Positions 1-43,600 of a DNA stretch of 64,000 nucleotides are shown here, in pieces; the stretch's first letter is position 1, and each line of letters opens with the position of its first letter. The translations under genes were made by a program, and so were the position numbers. Below the pieces are notes generated by a model. That model was not told the origin of the DNA and did no database searches. It worked only from the letters and a program-made list of their open reading frames with translations. Source of the DNA: Gnetum montanum (taxonomy: Eukaryota; Plantae; Gnetophyta). The stretch spans positions 1 through 64,000 of the forward strand of contig MNCI01000909.1 in assembly GCA_015680685.1 (NCBI GenBank), read 5' to 3'.

Positions 1-2579
1 ATGATGCCCTCTAGGCCTACTGCTAAGCATGAAAACTCCTTATAGGCTACTCTTCCTATGAGCTAGTGTATGGAAAACTACCAACACTTCCTATTCAATT
101 CGAGCTATGTACACTTTCAATGGCCTATGACTTGGATCTTGACCTGAGTCTAGCACAAAGAGAATGATTGATCAACCTTAACATGCTAGATGAAAACTAA
201 TTAGTGGTCATATTCTTAAATGAAGTGCATAAGGCATTCAGCAAGCAATGACATGACCTAAGAATAAGGAAAGCCAAACTTCAAAGTAGAGATAAGGTCC
301 TCTACTGGAACCCCACACATGTTCCACAACAAACTAAGTTTTAAACATTGTGGGAGGGGCCTTATAAAATTGACAGAACCTTTCCTTTTGGGGCCATGAT
401 AATTGACAAACCTAAAAGTCCAAATAAGAAACAATTGGTTAACATTCAATAAATAAAACCTTTCCATGAACCTAAGTAAGCCAATGCAACGAATACCTCA
501 TTAGATGGACAACATTTCTCAATCTTTTGAATCTCCTCCTTTCAACATAGTCATGGGGGAGATGGGAATTTGTGCTAACCATTTATGTAGCTCCTTAGTT
601 TTTCTATTTTTTATTTTACACATAGTTTATTCTACACCTTTTTTATTTATAATTTTTTTCTATTTTACAACATTTTTTGTTTTACACCATCATTGGTACA
701 TTTGATTTTTCTTGAATATTTTATACTTTCTTTTATAATTTCCTTTGTTTTAGATGTGATTTTCTAGATATCTACTAATAAAGTGCTTTGTGCCAATAGG
801 ACATAGTGGTACTATAGCTATTATTAATGGTGGTTGGTACTTATTGTTCTTGATTGCTAATGTCAGGTTTCTATTTTTAAATTTTGCTATCGATAACTAA
901 GACATGGTTTCTTTTTCAATGAGTCCATGACATCCACCCATCCACAAACTCTATGGTTTTCCTTGTTTTGGAATTATGAGGTCCCTTTTCATTAAGAAAG
1001 CTTTAATGAACTTATGACCTTGGTAGTTTCCAAACTTGGAAAGGATTCAAGGCTTTGAATGGGGTGTGACTTCAAGGGGACTTAATACTCTTTATACCCT
1101 TCTACTTACTTGGATGCATTAGTGTTTTCATGTATTTCTTATTGTTCCATGTTGACCAATAATAGGAAGTTGAATAAGTCTTTGGATGGTGTGGTTTCTA
1201 TATAAAAAAATACAAAAAAACACAAAACAAAAAAAATGAAAAAAATGATGAAGAAAAAGAATGATGATAGAAATTCAAAGCACATCCCTTAGACAAAATA
1301 ACGGGCTACAAGCACTGATTATGAAACTAGAAAGATACGTTACCCATGCTTGAAGGTCCCCTCTAACTAAGGTTTTTTCTCACTTCTTGCTTCTCTTTTT
1401 TTCTCTATAAGGAATGGTGATTGATTTGTGAGAGCACTCTTGTGTATCAAGGGTTTGAATCGCTCTTAGAGTGGTGATGCAAAGTCAGGTTTTGGTCTGG
1501 ACTAAGGATGGATTTTATTAGACCATTTAACCATAAAAATTCATGAGGGACTTCATGTGACCTTAATCAAAAACTTCATTCCACTTTTTCTCTCATCCAT
1601 CTATGCTTTCCATCACTCACCTCATTTCCGAAGTCCATGTCTATGTTTGATGTCTTGCTTTAACATGCTTGAATTCTTAGGTTGATTCTTCCAGGTTTTG
1701 ATCCTTAAGTTATTATAACCATTAATCACCTATGGGGCCCATGGACTCCTTAGGTTGAGGTTATGCAAGGGCAAAAAAGACATGTGCCTGCTATGGAGAG
1801 GACCCACTTGCATATCTCTTGGTTGGATTAGTTAAGTACCTCATCCTTAGACATTCCCACAATCCAAACCCTCATGCATTCCATTCGATTCATCCAACTA
1901 TGCACTCCTTAAGGTAATTTCTTCAATGAACATATTCTTCACCTAATTTTTCAATTTTTGAGCTTTCAACGATCCTCTTTGATGATTTCATCAAATTCCT
2001 AGCTTTTTTGGGACTCCATGGATCCCACTTTCATTAGAAAACTCTGTGTATTTTTTATGAAATTCAAATTGAAAATTTTATTTTGCATCCTTCGTAAACG
2101 AGTACCCATTGATGGACCCCCTACATATAACACAAAAATAGTATATATATATACATGCACACACTTCAAATTTTTTACATTTCCTTTCAAATGCCAAAGG
2201 AGTATTTGTAGTTTTGAGAGCCCATAACCTTCCAAAAGCCATATTTTCCTAATCGTTTGTCCAAATCACTTCATTGTTTAACCCTATAGCTACCAGAGGT
2301 ATGCTATTAGTCATGAGGACCAGAAACTTGAAGTTTTGATAGAAAATTTTTCTAACTCCCATAAAGGTTTAACAAAAAAACCAACATGAAAACATCAAAT
2401 TATAAAATTTAAACCCTTCCAACTAGTTCTGATAACACTTTGAACTTAAAAATTAATAAAATAACCATTCTACCATGGTCCAACCTTAACCTAGGTGTAA
2501 CTAACTAACAACATGAGGTATCAAAACATTATATGTTACACATTATATATACTAATCCTTGGATGTGTTGTGACCATAG

Positions 2580-3262
2580 ATGGCATGAAAGGGGAAGCAC
2601 ACATGAGAAGGAGGACCATCACAACCATGGGACAAATGATCATGAATGGGAAGGGGCTAAGAACAGGCCCAAGAATAAGAAGCAGCAACCCATGCTATGG
2701 GACCTCTTAGGGAGGAGCCCAAAGTGGAATTTGTCTATTAGATTCCAAAACAAGTGGCTAGCTTGTACTTGTTATACGAGGCAAAATTCAAGCACCACAA
2801 GGACATAAAATAGAAGTTTGTAGTGGCAAACGTGGAACTCAAGGTTCTCAAGATGAAGTTCATTGATCAAGGATGAACTACTAAGAACCTAGCCAAGAGG
2901 ATGAATGACTACAAGGAGCTACAAAATGCTCTCAAGGTATTCAATATTGAGCGTAAGCAATTTGCTATCTAGTTTATCAATGTGAATGAGTTGTCCCTAG
3001 TAATGCCCTGTCTATGGGATATCCACATTCCAGCCCACATTAGTGATGCTGTATGGACTGTGAATGATCCCTAATGCAAGGAGGAGAAGATGAAGGCATC
3101 ATTGGATAACTTTCATCTTTCACTAAAAGTCATAGCTATAGTAAGATAGTCACAATTGCCTCCACCACCTCATGCATCCAAAGAAGGAGAAGATCCTTCA
3201 AAACCTTAGGAACCTTCATTGCCTTAGACCATTTGATCTTTTCAACCATCTTCACACTGTAA
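2580..3262 (+). pseudogene. Athila ORF2 (env-like/accessory) remnant with a ~2.2-kb internal deletion
   Basis: CTAAT...CCATAG|ATGGCA start matches copy 2 at 18906. Homology jumps from ~18760 to ~16580 of copy 2 at about 2720-2745. Confidence 0.75.
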
Positions 3263-3458
3263 GAGGATGCATTATCCAATTTTGTTCAATCAAGTTTTGG
3301 TGTTCAATTTTGTGTCATGAACACCACAATTTTGTAATCAATGTCAATCCATACACTTGGGCACTTAGTTTTTTCATGTCATGTGTCAATCAATAATCCC
3401 ATACCTTTCTAATTTTGTAAAGAACTTGAGAACAAGTTTTCATTCAATTGTGGGGGTA

Positions 3459-4324
3459 TGATGAAGTGTCTTCGATCAACTACATCAACGAGATATCATC
3501 GATGCAACCCCATCAACATAGAGTTGCCCACATTGACGTGTACCCATTGATGTGGTACCCTAGTATGTCTATAAATACAGCACCCTAGCTGTGTTAACTG
3601 GTGGTTTAAAATTTCAGTTGCTAGTGAAATTCTTACAGTTTGCTTTGATAGGAGATAGAATAATTTTCTGAGTACTTGCAGTAGGAGTTAAGGAGTGTAC
3701 AAATCTTTATTTGAGCACTGTTGTACCTGAGCACCATAGTGTGTGTGGCAATAAAGATGAGTTTTTTGATAAACCTTGCAACACTTCGACTAGCTTAATG
3801 ATTTATTTATGCACTTATTGTTTTCGTTGATTAAGTGATTAATTAAGCTAGAATGATTAAGACTTTAAGTAATTAATTAAGCTAAATAGACTAACACACA
3901 TAAGTATGACCACTTCAAGCATATGTATAACACTTGGTAATCCTAGTAGTGCTTAAAACTTGGTCACCTAGTAGTGTTGTATGTGTTCAAGATGTGTATA
4001 GAAAGTGGGACCAAATGCTTATGTTAAGATAGTTAATTATTAATTAGCAATTAAATTAGTTAATCAATTTATTCTCAATGTATTACCAACCTTAGGCAAA
4101 CAAAATATAAAATAATAAAAATCATGTGCCTCAATTGCACTTAACCATACAACTGAGCTTCACAAGTGTAGTTGGGGAAACAATGATTATTCCATAATTA
4201 GATTCACCTTCTAGAATAAATCTTGTGTACAAGAACACTAGAAATCCATAGAATTCAACTGAATCACTCATGAACACCTCAGTGATTTATATGGCTAGGT
4301 GTAGGGGCACCTCTTTGCTCACCA
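3459..4324 (+). repeat. 3' LTR of Athila copy 1
   Basis: PPT GTGGGGGTA (3450-3458) is followed by TGATG...GCTCACCA. Homologous to the LTRs at 14968-15827 and 27359-28213. Confidence 0.9.
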
Positions 4325-16049: not shown

Positions 16050-18906
16050 CTCTAATGGCATAAAGATGATGAAGAAGATCAAATGGTCCTAGGTAGTGGA
16101 GGCTCCTAAGGCTCTAATGGACCTTCTCCTACCTTGGACACATGTGCTGGTTGAGGTAATTATGGTTGTCCTATGGTGGCTACAACTTTTGGTGAAAGAT
16201 AGAAGATGTCCAACAGTGCCTTGATCTTCTCCTCCTTACTTCAGGGATCATTCAGAATCCACATTACATGACCAATGAAAATTGGAATGGAAATATCCCA
16301 TAGATAGGGAATTGTAGGGAATAGCTTCTTCACATTCATGAACTAGGCAATGAACTATTTACATTCGATGTCAAATGCTTTGAGTGCATTCTACAGCTCA
16401 TGGTAATCATTCATCCTTTTGGCCAGGTTCTTAATAGTTGATCATTGATTAATGAACTTTATCTTAAGAACCTAGAGTTTGGCATTCGTAATCTCAAGCT
16501 TCTTCTTGGTCTCTTTATGGTGCTTGAACTCTGCCTCATATAAAAAGTATGAGTTGGCCACTTGTTTCTTCAATTTAGACCATGGCCTTCTAGTAGTCAG
16601 CATTGCCAAGTTTTTGTACTAGAGATTGGCAAGCTCCATGTATGCAGTCATCTCCTTGATTTGTAGCTCCTTCATGTTGATTTCTACCTTGTTGTATGCA
16701 TTCAACCCATCAAAGATAGGCTTCTAAACATCACCTCCTTCTTGGATCTCTTAGAGGGTTTCATTCACTTTTTCCTTCGCCAATTGGATGTGTTTCAAAT
16801 TAAATTCTTTCTGTAGACCAACCTAATCTCTATAATGGTTTTTGACTCTCTTAAATTTGAGAGCCTTGTTCTTTTAGGTGGCTCTTTTTATTGCATACTT
16901 TTGGTGAAGGGCACAGACTTCCTCCATGGAGAGGTTTCTATTTTTTACTACCAATCCCCTCAATTCATTATTTATCCTAGCTAACTACTCATATTTTTTA
17001 TGGATAAAATCTACCATTTTCTACTTCTGTGTAGCAACATTCCTTAGGCAATGATTCTCTACGGTTAGGATCTCATTCTCTTGGCATGTCTAGGCTAAGT
17101 CCTTTTGGACATTGCACATTGTGGTGTTGGCTAAGGATTGGCCAAAGACTACCAACTCCTTAGCATCCTCAACTTCTTTAAGTTTTTTCTGAAGCTATTG
17201 AAAAGCTTCATAATAGGTTAGTGCTAGGATGAGAAACACAAAATCAGCAGGGTGGGCTCTTAATTCAGCAAATTTTATAGCCAAGCATTGGTTTTGTGAT
17301 ATGGCTATTTTAAGTTGCCTCTCTAGTATAATGCATTTGCCCCTTGCCTTGAGTAGCTCTGACTATGTTGTAGTGATGGTATCTGAAAGATCAAAGACAT
17401 CTAAAATTGGTTGCCTAGTTTCCACCAATTGGTTTAGCAATTCCTCATGCTAGGCTATGCTCAATCTATTGGTAATTATTCATATAGATGTTTTCACATC
17501 TCTCTATGTAGAAATTTTTGGTACAGATACTATAGGTGCGTTAAGTGCTTTGGCAATTCTATCAGCATCACCAAGATAGTTGCCCCATCACCCTTCTCCA
17601 AATGTATTGAAAATGTAGCGATGTTCCCAAGGATGTATTGGAATTGCTGCTCCTATAAGAGAGATACCATTACCTCTCAGGGTCTAGGATTTGACCTCAT
17701 GAGTAGCTCCATTCTTTGGGTTAGAAAATGGATCCCTCATATTCTATCTAACTTATGGTTTGGACTACTTTATTGAGGTGGCTCATTATTGGTCTATACA
17801 TAGATGGATCACCACCACTCATTCCTTCTTGTTGTTGCTACTAGTATAAGAGCTAATCTCAAAGTTCATGCATATGCTCAAGGGTAAAATGAGAGTTTGA
17901 CATTATTTTATGAGTGGGTGGTGGAGGTGGTTGTTTTTTCTCCTCTTCTTGAATGACTTTGGTAGGAACTTTGTCCTTCATCATTTTTACCCAAGAGGTA
18001 TTTGAGCTTGTCAAATGACATCATTTGTAAAGTGTGTTATGCCTCCCCTCTTGCATAACTTTTTAATGAGGCACTGAAAAGGAAGTACCTTCCTTTCATA
18101 TTTATTCTCCTTAAAACACTTATAAATTTTAAAATAGATCAACTATGGAAGGTTGACTGGGAATCTATCATTTAGAGTGGTAAATGCATAGGCAAAGAAG
18201 GCTGTGATCTTACTTAGCCTCACAGTTGGATTAAGGTGAAAGGTTGCAATCTTGAAGTATGCATGCTCCATCATGGTGAGTGCACCAAACTCCTTATGTT
18301 CCACTCCATAACACCATTGCATCCATTCTTTCTTGATGCTAGGATTTTCCTACATTGGAATCTCTACAAGATTGGTTCAAGATTTTGGTAACCCAAGGGC
18401 CTCTAAAATTCATTTCACTAAGTAGGACATTGAAATGTCCTTAATATTGACCTTTGAACTAGCTTGCCTATTGTTCCAGAACAAGGATGTCTCTCTCATG
18501 TCTCACTCCCTATTGAAAGTGGTAGTGGGCCACATGGGATAGTTCTACAATTGGGCTTTCACTTCTATAGGTGCAAACTCCAAGAAAGGTCCAAATTTTA
18601 ACTCTTAGAGCATAGATTTCTAGATCTACTTATTTGTGATCTACTTCAGATAAGCCTCCGTCAAGGTGGTCTCAAGTTTTAGTCTTAGTTATGGTGCCTC
18701 ATCTTAATGAGATTATTCTATCATGGTTGCTTCAGAAATTTTTTAGACAAATTCCATTTCATGCTCCTCCCGAAGAGGTCTCGTTGCATGGGTTTCTGCT
18801 ACTTGCTCATGGGATTATTCTTAGCCTCTTTTGGTTTGTGGACATTTATTCCTTGGTTGGGATGGTTCTCCTTTCTACACATTCTTTCTACACATTTAGG
18901 TGCCAT
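16050..18906 (-). pseudogene. Athila ORF2 (env-like/accessory): N-terminal Transposase_32/PMD-like domain plus long coiled coil
   Basis: Splice-acceptor-preceded ATG at 18906. Translation includes ILEALGLP...RLSKITAFFAYAFTTLNDRFPVNLP, then K/E-rich heptads. Many stops. Confidence 0.75.
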
Positions 18907-32149: not shown

Positions 32150-33330
32150 GGAGATAGTGGGATAGCATGTGAGCATTATGGGTTATATCCACAACATGTG
32201 AGACCTATTGGGACAGTGTGTGTGCAACAAGGATTATCTTGATAGTTTGTGGAACTTGGGTTGCTCGCATATGACCACTCTAGATTAGATCCTTAGCATA
32301 TGGAACCTAGTTTGATAGTGTATGGGTATCTTGGACTAGATCCTTAGTATATGAGACCCAATGGGGTAGTGTATGAACACTCTAGATTAGATCCTTAGCA
32401 TGTGGAATGTAGTCTAGTAGCATGTGGGTATTTTGGACTAGATCTTTAGCATGTAAGACCCAATGAGGTAGCATATGGGATTGATCCAAGTATCATATGA
32501 AGTAGGATTTATTGATTGATATCATCTAGAAACTTATTTCCTTGTTAGTTTTCCTTGTTCAACATATGAGACACTTGGTGATTTGGTTCTAGGATTGTAG
32601 GAACCACCTATTAGCTTGTTTGATTAGTTTGATAGTGTATGGAATCCTAAATATCAGTTTCATGCCAAGATGTAGCATATGAAGTTAATTTCCTAGTTAA
32701 TTTCTCATCCATAGTGTGTGATAACCTTGGTTAATTTTTTCAAACTCTATGGGATTCACTAGGTAGTATATGGAAGATATAGGGGTAGTGTGTGGGGTAA
32801 GGAAAATTAATTTGACAAGATATGTCAGTGTATGAGATTAATTTTGTAGCTAAATTCCCATCCCTAGCATGTGAAACCTAAAGTATTTTTGCTCATGGTT
32901 TGTGGGATCCACCTATTGTCAAAATTGACTATATTGATAACGTGTGAATCTTGGAAATCCAACCTCTTAATCAAAACTAGTGTATGAACTTAATTTCTTC
33001 CTCTATTTTTCCTCCCTAGCATATGAAATAGTGTATGAAATCCTAGTCATTTTAGCCATGTTTCATGGGGCCCACACATCACCAAAATTGAACATGTTTG
33101 TAGTGTATGGATTAGAAAAATTAAATATTCCACTAGAACCAATGATATAAATCTAATTTCATTTTTAATTTTCCATCCAAAGCATGTGAAGGGTAATTCT
33201 TGGCATGTGAGAGAAGATATGCACAATGTGCAGGGTTGGAAAGAAGATTTTTGTAGCAAACCTTAGCATATGAAGCTAATTTCACACTTAATAATCCTTA
33301 CCCAACTTGTGAGAGCGAGACTTGGAATTA
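32150..33330 (+). repeat. Array of roughly 30 copies of YAG(C/T)(A/G)T(A/G)TGR, including a ~101-bp tandem duplication
   Basis: Repeated TAGCATATGG/TAGTGTATGG/TAGCATGTGG. CACTCTAGATTAGATCCTTAGCA occurs at ~32276 and ~32377. Confidence 0.8.
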
Positions 33331-36123
33331 TAAAATAATTTAAATAGAATATTATAAATTTTGGCTTATCTACCTCATGTGTTTAGCATGTTGTAGCAAG
33401 TGTAGGGATTTTGAACTTCTCCTTGTAGTAGTTAGAGACAAAACTATCGAAATCTAGTAACCATGGTAAAGAAAAACAAATTAACAAGTTGAAATCTAGG
33501 ATTTGAAGAGGTAGAGGAGGCTATAAAGATCATATCTAGGCTTTTGAATCCATCTACAAGTAAATGATCTTCATCAATGTCTACCAAGTACCAATTTTCC
33601 ATTATTTTCTTTAGTTTTTGGCTAAATTGTAGAAACCTTTTTCCATTTCTAGGCCTATTTAGTTAGATATTTTGCATTCTAACTACATCGAATCTAGGAT
33701 TTTGATTTTTCTAACCATATTAGGGATGAAATTTGGGATCTTTTTGCTTTTTTGGTAAATATTTTGATTTTTTCCCAAACACGTGCAGCATTGATGTCCT
33801 ATTTTTGCCTATTTTATGCAAATTTATTGTTTTTTGTAGCCTATGTATGATGAGATTTATAGGTTTCAACTACATAGAATTGTTTTTTAGGCTTATTGGT
33901 CATACTAAAGGTGGAATTATATATCTTAAATTTTTTCTAGCAAAGATTTGGATTTTTCTTTACCCACTATATAGTGATATGTCTATTGGCATTATTTTCT
34001 AAGGCTTTTGATTTTTTTCATAGCTAAAGTAGCAGCATTGATAAGGTTTTGATCACATACGGATAATTTCTTGAATCTTTGGGCATGGTAGATGTAGTGT
34101 AGAAGGGTCCTAGGCCATGGTTGTATGTTTTGAAATTTTTTTGAGGTTTTTTATGGTAGTTAATCAATTTCAAACTAGGGTTTTTCTAGCTAAATTTTAT
34201 GAAGATTTGGGATTTTTAGCACTTATAAGTGTAGTGCTATTAATGAATCTAGGTTTTTCTAGCCATGTTCACTACATATATGGTTGAAAATAAATTTTAA
34301 AAAAAATTTCTATATTTTTTCCAACCCTAAGTACTTGCATTGGCCAATTTTTGGTTGAGATATGAAGTTTTAAATTTGTTGTACCTTATGTTGATAGAAT
34401 TTGGGTGCTTGAGACTTAAATTGTGCAATGTTGATTTTTCCTAGTCCTATGGATACCATGTGAGTACCTAAGATCTGCAAGGGTAGTGTATGGGTTGCTA
34501 AAGCTAGGAAAACTTGTGTTTTTTGTCTCATTTCCACATCTTTAGCATTTTGGACTATATGAGTTCTTTTTTACCATTGTTTTTAAAAAATTTTCACTTA
34601 CCAAGCTCCAACGTTGTTAATCTTCATCATATGCTTTTGTGACAACTTGATTTTATGTCAAATATTTGTAGAAATACTCGTTTAATACTTTGTATGTTAG
34701 CTATTTACAAAATGTGAAACTTGGTTCTTCAAAGTATCTATTATCTTTTTTCATGTCAAACAATTGTCAAAATGTCAAATCAATTTTTTTTTATGTCACA
34801 CTCGTCACAATATCAAATTTGATGTTTTGATTTGTACTACAATGGTAATTATATTAATGAACTTGTTTATTTTTTATTTTTTGTTCTCACATCAATGTTG
34901 GTACTATTGATATCATTTTTACTTCTTTTTGTTTGTTTTCAAGTTTTTAAAAGTTCTAAGATCTAATGACTATATATTTTGGCTATGTAAAAGGCTCTAC
35001 TAAAATCAATTTTGATCATTGTGAGGTTGGTAGACATTTTGTACTATATAGAAATGGCTACCTAGAATAGTTTAATACCTGACATGACCCTTAATGAGTG
35101 CACTCATGCATGGTTTAGAATTGGTCCTAGAGATTTCCTAATGTACTTACTACAAGATTACAATGTAATAATGTGGTCACACTTGGTTGTCGATGTTTTA
35201 GCTATAATTACAAAGACTCTTATGGTAGGGTCTTCTAATTACATTTTGAAGTACATGATGGATGATCCTAAAACCTAGATAAACATAGAGCATGAAGGGG
35301 GTTTATACTCCATAGGGGTTTGATAGTTATTGCACATCTGAGAGATGCCGATGTATTCCTGATATAATGCAGACAACACCTTAATGCTAGGTCATAGACT
35401 AAATACTCTATTTAAAAATCCTATTGAAATCATTTACCTACTAGAAGCATAAGCCTTATTTTAGTTTGACATATTTTTATTTCAATTTTAGGTCTTTTTG
35501 TTTGACTATTTTCATATTTTAGTTTTGCAGGTTTAAGGTGCACAATAGAGGATTGTTGAAAAATGACCAAACATTGTCCATAGCCTACATAGCCTCGGAA
35601 GAATCTAACTAAGGTGATGTTATAAGAATGCAAGTGCTTAAGTAGCTTGATGTAGAGTTTTTCTAGTACCAGATGCAATATTCTTATGCATATTAGAGCT
35701 ATATGACCACCAAATATGCACATGAGTTTTGGAATCTCCAAGGTTTAGGAGCCTGTACACAACTTAAACTTATAGTTTTAGCTTTGTCCTAGTTAGGTAA
35801 GTGAAATTGTTTTAATTTATTCAATGCTTTAAACATTTTTTTATTTTATTTTTTTTGATTTTTGGTTTTTAGTTTTAAATTTTTAGTTTTAGTTTAGTTT
35901 TTTTATGATTTCTACATTTTAGTCTTTATGATTTTTAATTTTTTAGGTTTGATGGTTTTTAATTTTTAGGCTTTTTTTGTTTTTAAATTTTTAGGATTTA
36001 TGATTTTTAATTTTTATGTTTTTTTTAAGAGAATGTTCGGGTTTGTATTACTAAAAGTTATGGTACACGAGTAAACAATTACAATGGGGGGGACATCAGG
36101 GATGGCCCACTCTGAGGGGGGGG

Positions 36124-36951
36124 NNNNNNNNNNNNNNNNNNNNNNNNNNNNNNNNNNNNNNNNNNNNNNNNNNNNNNNNNNNNNNNNNNNNNNNNNNNNN
36201 NNNNNNNNNNNNNNNNNNNNNNNNNNNNNNNNNNNNNNNNNNNNNNNNNNNNNNNNNNNNNNNNNNNNNNNNNNNNNNNNNNNNNNNNNNNNNNNNNNNN
36301 NNNNNNNNNNNNNNNNNNNNNNNNNNNNNNNNNNNNNNNNNNNNNNNNNNNNNNNNNNNNNNNNNNNNNNNNNNNNNNNNNNNNNNNNNNNNNNNNNNNN
36401 NNNNNNNNNNNNNNNNNNNNNNNNNNNNNNNNNNNNNNNNNNNNNNNNNNNNNNNNNNNNNNNNNNNNNNNNNNNNNNNNNNNNNNNNNNNNNNNNNNNN
36501 NNNNNNNNNNNNNNNNNNNNNNNNNNNNNNNNNNNNNNNNNNNNNNNNNNNNNNNNNNNNNNNNNNNNNNNNNNNNNNNNNNNNNNNNNNNNNNNNNNNN
36601 NNNNNNNNNNNNNNNNNNNNNNNNNNNNNNNNNNNNNNNNNNNNNNNNNNNNNNNNNNNNNNNNNNNNNNNNNNNNNNNNNNNNNNNNNNNNNNNNNNNN
36701 NNNNNNNNNNNNNNNNNNNNNNNNNNNNNNNNNNNNNNNNNNNNNNNNNNNNNNNNNNNNNNNNNNNNNNNNNNNNNNNNNNNNNNNNNNNNNNNNNNNN
36801 NNNNNNNNNNNNNNNNNNNNNNNNNNNNNNNNNNNNNNNNNNNNNNNNNNNNNNNNNNNNNNNNNNNNNNNNNNNNNNNNNNNNNNNNNNNNNNNNNNNN
36901 NNNNNNNNNNNNNNNNNNNNNNNNNNNNNNNNNNNNNNNNNNNNNNNNNNN
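36124..36951. other. Assembly gap (828 N)
   Basis: Run of N bounded by a G-run and a C-run. Confidence 1.
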
Positions 36952-39900
36952 CCCCCCACCACAAAGCCAAAATTAACCCCGATTGGTGCCCACGGCGTTT
37001 ATGGCGAAGGGCCTCAAGGAAGAACCGCGGCAGGTTAACCTGGGGGCCGTCCTTCAAGCACCTCAAGAAGGTGAAATGCAACCCCTGGAGCTTGGACACG
37101 TTGCCCGAATAGACGAAAAAACGTTCCACCAAGGTGGCGGCGCAAGTCCAGAGGCGCGGGAGAGAAGACCGAGGGACCTGGTGGCTCTACGTTCTCAGGG
37201 TTAGCCCCTTGAAAAAGGTCGCAGAGTTCTGGAGGTCGCAGGAGGTTAGCAGGATGACCTCACCAACGGTCGGGACCCCCAAATAGCTGGCCAGGGTGGC
37301 TTCCATGAGCCGAATTGCACGGCCATGAAAGAAAGTTTGATCACCGTGCCAGTTAGTAAAGAACGTGTTGTTAGGAAGGTCAGGGTCCCTGACCAGCCTT
37401 TGCAGCAGGTCGGCCTAGCCGCACTGGCAGACCATCTACCAGAGTTTCACGTCATCCTGGTAGACGGTGCAGTCAGGTTCGTATGTCGGCGTCGCTCCCA
37501 TGGTGTCCGCAAGCTCGCGCCACGCTCTGAAGGTCCGCAGGATAAGTCGCTAGGGGGGGGGGTTGCCGCCTGCGAAAAGACCATGCAATTCTGCACCTTC
37601 CAGGCGTGCCATAACAGCAGCGTTGACCAGGAGTCACCATTAAATCACCGGGGGGGGGCATCTTGCATGCGCGCCAAGTGGCAACCATGCAAGGGCAGTC
37701 GTAAATGAAGTGGGTGAGCGTTTCGGAGCTAGTTCCTCAGCGCGGACACGTGGTGTCGTGTGTGATGCCGCGCTGCTGTAGTACGGCACGTACGGGGAGC
37801 ACCGCAGACTTTATCTGCCAGAGGAACATTTTGACTTTCTCGGGAAGCCACCTGCGCCAGATCTCCTGCCAGCTGTCCTCCGGGGGAAATTTTTACGTCA
37901 GGATGGTGCGTGGATCGAGGTGGATCCAGCCCAGGCGCAGCATCTTCCGCACGTGCTGACAGATGATCTGCCAAGGGCGCGAAACGTGCGGTCCAGGCTG
38001 CCAAGGCATGTATTTCCGGCGGGCGATGTGGGCCCACTGGCTGCGCTCCCCCAGCGCACGTGTCAGTCGGTGGACGAGCCGTTGCTGTCCCATCGTGCAT
38101 TCATCTTCGAAAGTCATGACCCCCAAGCCCCCCGCTTGACGAAGACGGGGGACGCGGTGCCAGTTTACAAGGTGAAGCTTGCTCTCCCCTTTGCCCCCCA
38201 CCAAATGAAGCCGCGGATCATGGCGTTGATTTGGTGAATTATGGCCTAGGGGGGCGCTGCGACTGCCACCACAAAGTGCGCAGTGGTCGTGAAGATCCCG
38301 GTAGCCACGAGGAGGTGGCCCTTGCAGGTAAGAAAATGGTTTACCTAGTGGTGTATGCACTTCTCGAGTTTGGCCAGGAGGGGAGTCCAAGTATTGTTCC
38401 ATCCCCAATGGAACAGCGGGATACCAAGGTAGGTATCGGTGAGTTTGCTGGACTAAATGTTCAGGATTTGTGTAACCCGGTGCTGCACTTGCAGGTCCAC
38501 ATTGATGAAGTATGCCGTCGACTTTGTGCGGTTGATTTCCAATCCTAATTCGGTGGCCAATCTGGTCAGGGCTAGGTTGATACACCGTGCCTGAGGGGCC
38601 GCCACCCGGCTGAGAAGCATGGTATCGTCGGCGTAGTGTTGAACACGGCAAGCCACCCCCACAATGTCCAGGCCCTCCACCCCTGAGGTACTGCAGTAAA
38701 ATTGCATGAGGTCCATGGCAATGATGAAAAACAAGGGGGACAGGGGGTCGCCTTGCCTCAGTCCACGACTAGGGGAGAAAAAGCCCCACAACCACCCACC
38801 CATGTCAAAAGAGAACCCTACGGAGGACTGGATATGCAGACATAATTGGATAAAATCAGGGTCAAAGCCTTTCTTATGCATGATGTCATGTAGGGCGTCC
38901 CAACTAAGCATATCGTATTCCTTAGCTATGTCTAGCTTGAGACATAGACCAGGAAACTTCGTAGTACGGAGGGAATGAAGGACCTCTTGCATAAGAAGAA
39001 CCTGATCCTAAAGGGTCCTACCATGAACGAAGCCTGCTTGATTACGTCCAACCAACTTAGGCAAGAGGGGTCCCAGACGATTGACCAGGAGTTTGGAGAA
39101 GACGCGAATGAGAACATTGCACACACCAATGGGATGAAAGTGCTCTGGGTGGTGTGCATTCAACTGTTTTGGGATGTAGATGATGCGTGAGTAGTTGATT
39201 TCGTGCCGTACCTGTCATCTGGCCAGCATGACGTTGAAAGCATCCAGAAGATTGGGCCCCACAACATCCAAGAAAGCTCTGAAGAACTCTAGTGACCAAC
39301 CATTCGGTCCAGGCGCTTTACCGCCCAGCATGTTGTTGATGGTGTTAGTCAATTCTGTCGCCGAGAAGGGGGCTAGAAGAAGTTGATTGTCCACAGCAGT
39401 GAGCACCTTGGCCACATGGACGGAGATGGGCTGGGTGGGGTGCTTGGTCCAAATGTGCCCTCAATAATGTGAGAGCTTGTTGGCAATCCCTTATGGGTCT
39501 TCAACCACCGCCCCAGCCTGAGTACGGAGGCCACGGATGTGGGTTTCGCCACGCGTCTTAGCCATGGCGAAGAAGAATTTCGTATGTTGGTCCCCCTCAC
39601 GGAGCCATCTAATCCAGGATCGCTGCCGCCAATAGGTCTCCTCCTCGTGATCTAGACTTTGGAGTTGACGGAGAAGATACATCTCCTTCGAGTGCAGCTC
39701 CTTCCCAGTCTCTTGTCGCGCCTGGATGTGTCCGAGCCGCTCCTGAACCATCTTGTGGCCAGTACGAAACGAAAACTTCTCGCCCACCGGGAGGGCCCGG
39801 ATGGCCCACTTGAGCCGAAGGAGAGAATCTTTGAAGAAGCTCTGAAGGTCCATCCGACCCAGCTGGTAATCGGCCCAGATGTCCTCCACCAGGGGGCGAA

Positions 39901-40630
39901 GCCACGGTTTGGTCAGCCATGTGGTCTCGAACCGAAATGGGCGTGGGGCCCGGGGTTGAGGTGGGCCAATGGACACGACCAACAAGCGGTGGTCAGAAGC
40001 AGCCTGCTCTTGCCCGGTCACGTTGATGGCGGTGCCGAGGAGAAGAGCAGAGCTAACGCAAACGCGATCAATGCGGGAGAGGACACGGTGCGCCCCTTTT
40101 TGTCGGTTGCTCCAGGTGACACGGCAGTTTGCAATGGGTAGATCAACAAGAGAAGAGCGCTCAAGGAACGCCATGAAATCTGGTGCACCTGGAGTTGGGG
40201 GGGCATCCCCCAGATTTCTCCCAAGGGTACAGACATTGGTTGAAGTCACCAAAAACCACCTAGGAGCCGTGATCAGGCACCAGCAAGGCCACCCGATTCA
40301 ACTCGTGAAGCCGTGATTCCCAATCCTGCGCCCCATAGAAGTTGGTTAGCCAAAAACCATGGGCAGGGATGTGGACCGTGATGGTCCATGGGGAGGCATC
40401 CACCAGAGTGGTGGTGGGATGTGCAAGAATGGCTAGGCCTCCAGCCCAGCCCTGGCTGGGGTGTAGGTAGGCGGTCCAGCCCATCCACTGGAGGTGACCA
40501 GATTCCACGGCCTGCAGCTTGGTTTCCTGAGGTAGACCATATCACAATTCTCCTCTCTGACAATACGACGTAGGGTATTTCGTTTATAGGGGGTACCCTA
40601 CCCCCTGTAATTCCAACTGAAAATCTTCAT
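36952..40630 (-). pseudogene. LINE ORF2: APE endonuclease, RT, zf-RVT/CCHC, then an Athila-ORF2-like C-terminal domain (a few stops and frameshifts)
   Basis: MKIFSWNYRG start at 40630. Motifs QETK, GDFN, TWSN, SRIDR, SDH, KAPGPNG, KLDIAKEYD, RGLRQGDPLSP, HYADD, GGLG, KVKMFLW, CPR..ETLTH..C, WHAWKVQN. Confidence 0.9.
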
Positions 40631-43600
40631 GTGCAACCAGAGGTGTGGCACTGGTAGACCTCCTGTAAGGTCTGCTGTTGGCCCAAGTCGATGTGTCGTT
40701 GGGCTTGTTGACTTCTGGACTAGGACTTGGTCAGGCGGCCTAGGTGCCCCTCCCCCTCACGGACCACAGGGGTGTAGCCGGCTTCTTCAGCTGGGGACTA
40801 CGACGCCTTGCGCTGTCGAGTCCGGGTGCTCCTCCGGACGACGTTTATGGTTTGTTACTATGGGCTACATTTGTTGTTTATGGTTTAACACCCTAATAGA
40901 CGAAGTATTTTGTGTGTCATAGATTTCATACATGAGTCTAAAATCACCATGGTTTGTTTTGGTTGTTCTAAGGAGAAGATTCTCCTCAAATGAGGTGAAG
41001 TAGATAGAGCATAGGAATGGCAGACATCCAAAAAGGGATCATCGATGTAGGCTTATTTGATTTGTTCATGTTCACTAGTCCATCTATGTCACAAACTAAG
41101 ATGTTGAACATGATTGAATATTTTTATGAAGGAGTCACCAAACGTTTTACTCATATGCATGGTTTTCTTGTTGTCATGAATATTAATGAGAAAATTTTTA
41201 TCGATCTTTTTGGTATACCTTCTATTGATGTTAAGGTGATTGTTAGAGTAGGGAAAGATGTTGGTATTAGAGAGGATATGGAGGCTTGGCTCAAATAATC
41301 TCATCATGCAATATTATCTTTTAATAAGTGTGACATAAGGAGGTGAATGTGTTATACCTTCTTTTCCAATCTAGTGTTTTCCCCATGCTATTGTCACAAA
41401 AGAAAACCATAGAAATTCAACAAGCTTGGACTATGAAAAATGTTTTGATAGATGGTACTAGGTTTGACTAGGCTAGTTTTCTAGTTGCTGGTTTATGAGG
41501 TGAATCACAAAAAATTTGTAAGAGCCTTTATTCTATATATCATATGCATTTTATGTTTTTTTGTGCATATTAGGTTTGTAGAGTTCTTAGTGATCAAGAG
41601 AGATGAGGAGTGGGTAGCATGTGATGTTTTCCAACTTTTGAAGCCTTCAGCTAAACACATTACTCATTCAATGCATGTCAAAGATCCATCCATGGAAGAT
41701 GTGAAATAGTTGTCTATCACCACTAAGAATGTTATTCTTCTGATGGGATGGGGGTTGAGCCCCATGTTATGTGTGGCAAGGAAGAAAGAATAAAAATGTC
41801 ATATGTGGAAGTAGATGGAACTACTAGAGAAAAAATAAAAAATCCATGAGTTGAGTAAAACATCATAGTTCCTAACCAACAAGCACTTATGAAATTGATA
41901 GTCAAGTTTAACAAATCTACTTAAGTTGTTGATGAAATGCATATGTTTTTTACATCTTTGATTTTAGCATTATTTTTTGTTACATCTCATTGATATAAAA
42001 TGTTTACTAATTTTATTTTATCTTTTTAGCTTTGATTTCATTGTAGGGAAGAAACAAGAATTGGCTACTCAAGTTGTTGTGCAAGAGGTGTGATGATGCA
42101 AAGAAGAAGAAAAAAGAATATCTAATGAAGCATAAGATATCTTGGATTCCATTTTAGGTGATTTGCCTTCAGAAGGTAACCCTCAGATCGACTTATCTCA
42201 TGATATTATTGGTAAATTTTGGTGTTATTTTTATTTATTTATTTAATTTAAATTTTTTTATATTTTTTATTATAAATTGTATTAATTGTTATGGCATACT
42301 ATAGGGCATGATCTTCCTTTGGAAATGTCCACATCCACATTCTACTCTAAACCTTGGATGAAGGCACCAGACAAGATTGAGTTTATGGAGGAAATGATGA
42401 ATGACATGGTTCATAGGCTATAATAGTTGGCTTCTGATGTTAGTAAGAAAAATTAAAACATTTTTGTTTTGCATTTTTTTATTTTTATATTTTTATTTTT
42501 ATGATTTTATTTCTTTAATGTTTTTATAGTTTTAATTGGTTTTAAATATTTTTATATTTTTAATGTTTTTATGTTTTTGTGTGACAATTTCTAAGGTGAA
42601 ATGGAAGCCTTCATAAGAATTTGAGTTTGATGAGTTTCTTGAATTCCCTTTTAATGTGGAGAACCTTTCATGGAGATTATATGAAGGGGCTACAACATGT
42701 GATGCATCTTGTGCAATAAATTTTGGGAGTTCTAATTTTTAAATAAGTTCTTGTGGGAATGAGTTGCAACATTGAAAAAGCTAAACAAGTAGTTGATAGA
42801 TGAAGTTAATAGTCTTAAAGATCACATGGAGTTCATAGAGGTGCATGTGTCCAATTGGGATTCCTTACCCATGAAGAATATTCAGTGGTCCCATTATTGG
42901 AATGCCATCCAATGAAAGGTTTCCCTAGGAAGGAGCAACATGAATAAGGACACGTAGTTGAAGATGATAGTTCGTAGAATGAAGGAATGGAGAGATTATT
43001 GTACATGGGTATTAGAGTAAGGGAAGAAGCAAAAAGCCCACAAGAAGCTATTCAAAGTGAGAAAGGATAACTATATGAAATCTTGGCAAGGTGCAACTAT
43101 GACACAACATACATATGAGTTATTTGTACAAGGAATAGGTGCAAAAGATATTTTCAGTAGGTTCAAGAAGTCATTAGTGGCTATTGATTCCTCCATTTCT
43201 TAGATTGTTACTACATCTAGGAAAACCTCCATGACTTTCTTTTCCTTTACTCCTCTTGAGTGGATAGAAGTAGAGAAGGAAAACGTCTTATCAAGAGTGG
43301 ACATAGGAGATATTGATTGGACCAACATGAGTGAAGAAGAAATTCTTCATAGGTTAGAGGCTAGTATCTAAAGATTCCCTCTTGAGGACATTGCCCATGA
43401 ACCTTGTGAGGTTTGTAAAAATTTTCTTTTATGTTATGTTTTTTTGATATTTTTTTGTTATGGCAGTTTTTATTGTTGCATGGTTATGTTTGTGACTAAT
43501 ATGATTACTAATGTTTGCATGTTTCTATTTCTTGTAGGCCCTAGGTAATGATGGTGATGATGTGAGTGACAATCCTCCTCTTCCTCCAAAGGCTTGATTT

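Follow-up and report, generated by a model that had tools for sequence, protein, structure and literature searches.

An accessory coding region of likely Transposase_32/ATHILA kind in the 3′ part of a high-copy L1-type LINE in Gnetum montanum

The 64,000-nucleotide stretch of Gnetum montanum DNA analysed here (positions 1 to 64,000 of contig MNCI01000909.1, called the window below) contains a minus-strand LINE copy with an unusual 3′ part. The best explanation, to which we assign a probability of roughly 0.6, is a decayed and 5′-truncated member of a plant L1-type LINE family of high copy number. In this view the family carries at its 3′ end, in place of an RNase H, a coding region likely of the Transposase_32/ATHILA kind; an LTR-type element is the likely source of this region, which in working copies likely continues ORF2 in frame. 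Judged from sequence comparison and predicted structures, the region would be a module common to two retrotransposon classes. The finding extends the known ORF2 architectures of plant L1 elements and draws attention to a protein family, at least 45 members strong, that lacks annotation.

The LINE copy and the coding content of its 3′ part

The element lies at ~40843–36019 as an island of GC content ~0.55–0.6 in surrounding DNA of ~0.33, and its features are collected in Table 1. For comparison with other copies, contigs from four DNA runs (X1, X5, X7 and X8; four organisms, three studies) were aligned at 80%. The copy is 5′-truncated, since 19 contigs of run X5 diverge from it behind 40845 and run on there with different letters. 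Its ORF1/5′ remnant gave no Pfam match in three frames. The ORF2 region contains 13 stops in the frame read and frameshifts near its start; endonuclease motifs are visible by eye from 40630, while Pfam returned no endonuclease on this frameshifted copy and the match to human L1 ORF2p begins at residue 181. The best PDB match of the reverse transcriptase (RT) region is human LINE-1 ORF2p (E 1.1e-29), R2 proteins following at 1.5e-19 or weaker; by this similarity the RT is closest to L1 ORF2p, which places the element in the L1 clade. Downstream of zf-RVT we find WHAWKVQNCMVF, which we take to be the W-x-x-W-x-x-R-N-type C-terminal motif of L1 ORF2; within it, the letter that prevails in the family at 37592 turns Q into R. 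Five runs of 7–10 G occur within 36086–40203, two of them coinciding with frame breaks, and indels in other copies cluster near 40193–40205.

Table 1. Features of the LINE copy and its immediate surroundings (positions in the window)
Feature	Position	Strand	Remarks
Remnant of ORF1/5′ part	40631..40843	-	GC drop beyond ~40850; truncation near 40845
ORF2 putative endonuclease and reverse transcriptase region	38100..40630	-	RVT_1 E 1.6e-24
zf-RVT zinc-binding domain	37674..37877	-	PF13966 E 1.6e-13, above curated cut-off
9-G run, frame change between zf-RVT and WHAWK segment	37650..37658	-	
Presumed L1 ORF2 C-terminal W-x-x-W-x-x-R-N-type motif, WHAWKVQNCMVF	37576..37611	-	
Junction: 10-G run 37553–37562 and TAG 37552–37550	37550..37562	-	
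16-codon linker, domain frame	37502..37549	-	predicted helix 2–16, low model confidence
Accessory domain from ATG 37501, continuing into the N gap	36952..37501	-	
Assembly gap of 828 N inside the element	36124..36951	.	room for up to ~276 codons
3′ end of high-copy element	36019..36123	-	A-tail ~36019–36027
Possible 6-bp target-site duplication TTTATG, weak	36013..36018; partner 40844–40849	.	

The peptides quoted in the preliminary description were all found where it had placed them on the minus strand, namely WHAWKVQNCMVF at 37611, RLILRTF at 37549, the ATG at 37501 and VNLP at 37039, as were the G run and the TAG which it had noted between the WHAWK segment and the domain. Its statement that a coding region stands where RNase H can follow zf-RVT was borne out at the level of Pfam profiles, where neither RVT_3 nor RNase_H was found in three frames of 37702–36953. 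The same holds for the argument from GC content, which in 100-base bins is 0.49–0.62 in the domain, 0.42–0.66 in the LINE and ~0.33 outside.

A codon model trained on ORF2 favours the domain frame over 37501–36953 by 27 and 43 log units and does so in five of five sub-windows, and the GC content by codon position is 0.55/0.44/0.73 in the domain as against 0.58/0.43/0.65 in ORF2. For the 16-codon linker the model made no frame call; control windows of such size were called right in 28 of 43 cases. In this copy the domain frame lies one base apart from the WHAWK frame and is interrupted by four TAG stops, at the junction (37552) and then at 37438, 37417 and 37189. At three of the four, the junction stop and two of the three internal ones, a sense codon is found in the majority of the depth (for the junction, 240 of 270 in X1 and 849 of 956 in X7), the fourth (37189) lying outside the best 40 of 355 rows. 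The differences between this copy and the majority fall at codon positions 1–2 in 21 of 26 cases, a count confounded by methylation-type changes and therefore set aside. On these sequence criteria, the accessory region is protein-coding and native to the LINE.

The readable domain ends at the assembly gap, which has G/C runs at both edges and is bridged by no contig; the whole element is spanned by none either. The domain is therefore inside the element provided that the scaffold gap is right, the A-tail being joined to the body via the gap alone; on that footing, the distance from ATG 37501 to the A-tail is ~1480 letters. To the left of the gap (36121–36020, minus strand) one frame stays open as far as the A-tail, and the codon model favours it. 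With a gap of exactly 828 it would coincide with the domain frame, an agreement that may be chance, the gap length being an estimate. The TTTATG hexamer is also present at 35997 and 40877, in low-complexity DNA.

Occurrence in the LINE family and homologous proteins

The preliminary description had proposed other copies of the LINE as a check, and they do share the domain. In run X1 the mean summed contig depth, which is not the same as copy number, is 3574 for the four domain bins, 4181 for 23 other LINE bins and 121 for the flank bin. The pattern is repeated in X5, X7 and X8, thus in four of four DNA runs, and the similar summed depth of the domain and the other LINE bins means that domain and RT occur with roughly equal frequency. 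At least 11 contigs, the longest few of many thousands, bridge the junction between the zf-RVT side and the domain with at least 31 letters on each side, each differing from this copy at 18–43 letters in 125–230. At the 3′ end (36010–36069) the summed depth is 4163 and 12064, compared with 185 and 309 for the flank bin, and the flanks beyond are variable, since loose ends before 36019 agree at 0.44. The accessory region is a trait of a many-copy LINE family, fixed next to the RT core. RNA reads aligned (228 and 162), nearly all of them partially and less than 90% alike, those of X14 showing no strand bias; they speak neither for nor against expression.

These data bear directly on a trivial origin of the region, be it a one-off chimera, a nested insertion, a mis-assembly or a degenerate RNase H. 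Such an origin could be suspected from the position of the region beside the gap, with G/C runs at both gap edges and no contig spanning the element. The family depth in four of four DNA runs, the 11 divergent bridging contigs, the sense majority at the stops and the codon model exclude a one-off chimera, and a degenerate RNase H is at odds with a full-length alignment to a non-RNase-H family (see below) and with a predicted fold that is mostly helical with one hairpin. We regard these explanations as very improbable.

The family in question was obtained by phmmer over 1.84 billion representatives, which gave ten matches, seven of them in one family; the matches P0008, P0011 and P0013 were dropped as proteins rich in repeats. 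With 38 more from a profile search, the homologues number 45 in total, six of which carry species names (two from Ginkgo, four from Taxus; among them Ginkgo Gb_11572 and Gb_10421 and Taxus KAH9304312, KAH9291484 and KAH9305769). These gymnosperm-type proteins share 20–36% identity with the Gnetum domain and align with it over its whole readable length, beginning at the start Met. They begin with MGGEP or MGGQL, and the conserved start motif, present in 23 of 45, is aligned with ATG 37501. When a profile of the 45 homologues was built without the query, the query scored 62 bits and the best of 1000 shuffles 3.5; this is a consistency test, because the homologues were found using the query. P0010 and P0057 were excluded from alignment A2 and retained in the 45-homologue profile. 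None of the 44 aligned members matches Transposase_32, ATHILA, PMD or RNase H/RVT_3 in Pfam. As far as sequence alignment goes, the domain is homologous to a gymnosperm-type family of at least 45 proteins for which Pfam has no name.

Other searches with the domain were negative within their scope: none of 273 candidates in a word-indexed homologue search with the domain alone, none of 5364 candidates among long fused proteins of 829–2365 residues (weak evidence), and none of 178 and of 227 stretches in locus scans of metagenome contigs. A scan of viral contigs gave one of 29 (L001), which was discarded as a short chance match. Within the family, the Ginkgo gene model Gb_10421 (P0010) contains two stretches of accessory domain. 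The members P0020–P0056, without Pfam name, have the conserved MGGEP start, with one subgroup more than 60% identical internally, and many of them possess long acidic or low-complexity tails.

Probable kinship with accessory proteins of LTR retrotransposons

The Pfam families that had been put forward for the domain, PF20167 (Transposase_32), PF10536 (PMD) and PF03078 (ATHILA), do not match it; no Pfam family does at the curated cut-off, and so no membership in Transposase_32 or ATHILA is assigned. A kinship is suggested by the ESM Atlas, whose scores concern homologues ~23% identical to the domain and lie mostly below the 0.9 bar of the tool. For a Taxus homologue, the feature scores are 0.88 to PF20167 and 0.85 to PF03078, and its model (pLDDT 0.51) fits a PF20167 cluster with a TM of 0.78 over 188 residues. 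For a second homologue the scores are 0.90, 0.89, 0.89 and 0.88, the top three named clusters being PF20167. One structure row of the Taxus homologue has a TM of 0.71 to a cluster with 14% PMD (PF10536).

The window also allows a direct comparison, as the ORF of its Athila-like element weakly matches Transposase_32 (PF20167) with E 7.5e-7, below the cut-off. Fitted end to end to the profile of the whole domain, this ORF gives z 4.8, a fit that none of 300 shuffles and none of 271 other pieces of the window reached. Local methods give little: the best E in BLASTP of the domain against the Athila protein is 2.5 and not significant, hhalign of the family against the Athila ORF yields a probability of 1.7–2.3% over 28 columns, and local hmmsearch 2.6–3.6 bits. 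The preliminary description had instead relied on a gapless alignment of 47 residues to Athila ORF2. The alignment is present, the Athila peptides lying at 18409–18146, with 9 identities and a score of 10, and 20 of 127,720 six-frame windows score as high, the self match included. Its resemblance is weak alone, since the score depends on VNLP and drops to −11 without it. The alignment was consequently rejected as stand-alone evidence, the whole-domain and indirect tests being those that carry the resemblance.

Structural searches with the domain itself were uninformative. Its AlphaFold model (pLDDT 61) consists largely of helices and has one hairpin; compared with solved and with viral structures, it gave no E below 0.001 and a best Z of 5.3, for a helical part alone. 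RNase H was absent from the fold-search rows of this low-confidence model (pLDDT 61), and a PDB sequence search with the domain gave one match, at E 0.31. Taken together, comparison of sequences and of modelled folds makes it likely that the domain is a remote homologue of the Transposase_32/ATHILA accessory proteins.

The Athila-like element is represented in the window by two copies, at 4–3463 (plus strand) and 21530–15823 (minus strand), which are ~71% alike. The former is without ~2.2 kb (18744–16567 of the other copy), a stretch that contains the Transposase_32 ORF together with the greater part of the ORF after it. This following ORF is a second long decayed ORF at 17800–16250 (minus strand) in the same frame, K/E/L-rich and coiled-coil-like, with no useful Pfam match.

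Extra ORFs of Athila, Ogre and Retand LTR retrotransposons are described in passages of three sources as carrying PF20167, PF03078, PMD (PF10536) and Transposase_28 (PF04195) (PMC6317226, PMC11728184, PMC11963269). As in those elements, the region here would be a sense ORF 3′ of the polymerase, and the predicted features and folds of its homologues match PF20167 and PF03078 clusters; it differs in its non-LTR carrier, in lying below Pfam detection and in being possibly fused to ORF2. Plant L1 elements, according to portions of two other sources, have either one ORF or two, and an RNase H/RVT_3 may or may not follow the RT (PMC5203782, PMC9033089). The present LINE agrees with the plant L1 clade in the order of putative endonuclease, RT and zf-RVT, in 5′ truncation, in the A-tail and in its L1-like RT, whereas a Transposase_32-like coding region stands where RNase H can be. 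The terms ATHILA, PMD and DnaJ have no occurrence in the one supplement file of PMC5203782 that was searched. A literature search, whose scope stopped short of Repbase, Heitkam 2014, Smyshlyaev 2013, the eORF tables of PMC6317226 and one supplement file of PMC5203782, found no LINE with such a domain in the portions of the sources covered.

Comparable additions have been described elsewhere. Parts of two sources report insect R1/Jockey LINEs with a viral SF1 helicase (PMC4686597, PMC6338049), and a third, likewise in part, bdelloid ORF3 types common to LTR and Penelope-like elements, for which template switching was proposed (PMC5408684). In these cases, too, a module is added at the end of ORF2 or is common across retroelement classes; the domain and the kingdom are different, and the modules there are enzymes while no catalytic family is seen here.

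Mode of expression, origin and possible function

Whether the domain is read as part of ORF2 depends on the G runs. At the junction run, the net lengths (without gap positions) of the 11 bridging contigs relative to this copy are +2, 0, +1, 0, −3, −3, 0, −2, −2, −4 and 0; four of the 11 also reach the second G run. By these lengths, the domain is in frame in three of the 11, which would fuse ORF2 to the domain, and not in the others, six having the offset of this copy (four gapless) and two the third offset. At the 9-G run 100 bases upstream (37650–37658), where this copy is likewise out of frame, one extra G is found in ten X1 contigs and one bridging contig is net +1, so that the family seems to be one base longer at this run. 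In favour of fusion, the majority sequence reads through from the junction run to the domain without a stop. A divergent loose end of two contigs at 37509–37534 reads, in hand translation of the domain frame, A-W-K-E-I versus A-W-R-E-L, and the linker would resemble what we take to be the helix following the W-x-x-W-x-x-R-N motif in L1 proteins. We give fusion to ORF2 about an even chance; a separate, overlapping ORF3 is somewhat less probable, and slippage at the poly-C run, which would yield both a fusion and a free protein, is improbable.

In its more definite form, the alternative of a separate ORF keeps the same element and domain and starts a third ORF at ATG 37501, which would share sequence with the end of ORF2 but use a different frame and be translated by re-initiation or from a shorter RNA. 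An ATG within ACCATGG has a strong start context by the Kozak rule, and ATG 37501 is the sole one of this kind among the 57 ATGs of the element; moreover, it is aligned with the Met within the start motif of 23 of the 45 homologues. The offset is kept in six of 11 bridging contigs, and no contig listed crosses the upstream 9-G run gapless. These points have to be weighed against the course of ORF2 itself, which would need at least 100 further codons in a frame rejected by the codon model, because its first two stops past the junction run (37449 and 37248) are sense in the majority. For the same reason there is no stop–restart coupling near ATG 37501. The linker, in addition, looks coding in the domain frame in the two-contig loose end, and the contig tables show the longest pieces, with a bias towards gap-free ones. 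The third ORF in this form is thus unlikely and we retain the fusion. Another ATG, at 37612–37610 (minus strand), belongs to the domain frame and lies across the ORF2 W-x-x-W motif; it is a possible start of an overlapping ORF3 or a by-product of the Leu-Trp codons.

The preliminary description had further proposed that a LINE lineage acquired an accessory domain of LTR elements. This proposal holds as regards a region that is coding, native, family-wide and likely a remote relative of Transposase_32/ATHILA; the Athila of the window was rejected as its donor, the similarity in sequence being merely remote. An LTR-type element would still be the source. The accessory gene could have been captured by a template switch between retroelement RNAs or by 3′ capture, then have been copied as part of the LINE RNA during target-primed reverse transcription, and in time have taken on the codon pattern of the LINE. 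Having retained its own ATG (37501), the captured gene may also allow a free protein to be made.

The converse is rather doubtful, namely a domain that has long belonged to a LINE lineage outside the flowering plants, with LINE-borne gymnosperm homologues and no recent LTR capture, the fold being ancient or having moved in the opposite direction. It would fit nearest relatives that are 20–36% identical and are not Athila proteins, as well as a codon pattern of the domain that is fully that of the LINE. The homologue fragment P0057, by contrast, adjoins PF25597, a Copia-type SH3 domain, at what may be a nested junction. The available sections of two papers, moreover, place accessory ORFs of the Transposase_32/ATHILA kind in LTR lineages (PMC6317226, PMC11728184). 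Capture from an LTR-type element hence remains our preferred reading.

As for function, LINEs form no particle and have no integrase, and the fixation of the domain in a high-copy LINE suggests that it is useful to an element lacking both. It would have been kept because it is beneficial to the element, and its fixation in a LINE makes a part in envelope or capsid less plausible and a role directed at the host (chromatin, silencing) more so. ORFs of the Transposase_32, ATHILA and PMD types occur widely in plant LTR elements, and what they do is left unsettled in the portions consulted of PMC6317226, PMC7264820 and PMC8616336. Among likely relatives, the sunflower Athila 14 ORF(+) combines PF20167 with a predicted nuclear signal, according to an excerpt of PMC11728184; DNA binding is predicted for the related Transposase_28 in part of PMC11963269; and passages of PMC8616336 describe host PMD proteins that act in silencing and suggest TE-encoded PMD as counter-silencers. 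Because of the nuclear signal, the DNA-binding prediction and the silencing roles of PMD among these relatives, we tentatively favour, by analogy, a non-catalytic nuclear factor that might help the element to escape or steer chromatin silencing. A bolder version would have a plant L1 lineage replace RNase H by an RT-fused, LTR-type chromatin accessory module, with a long helix and an Hsp70-recruiting J-domain hidden in the gap. This we consider unlikely; if true, the LINE would deliver an anti-silencing, chaperone-recruiting module to its own insertion site.

Elsewhere in the window, a tandem duplication of ~100 bases, 83% alike, is located at 32270–32477.
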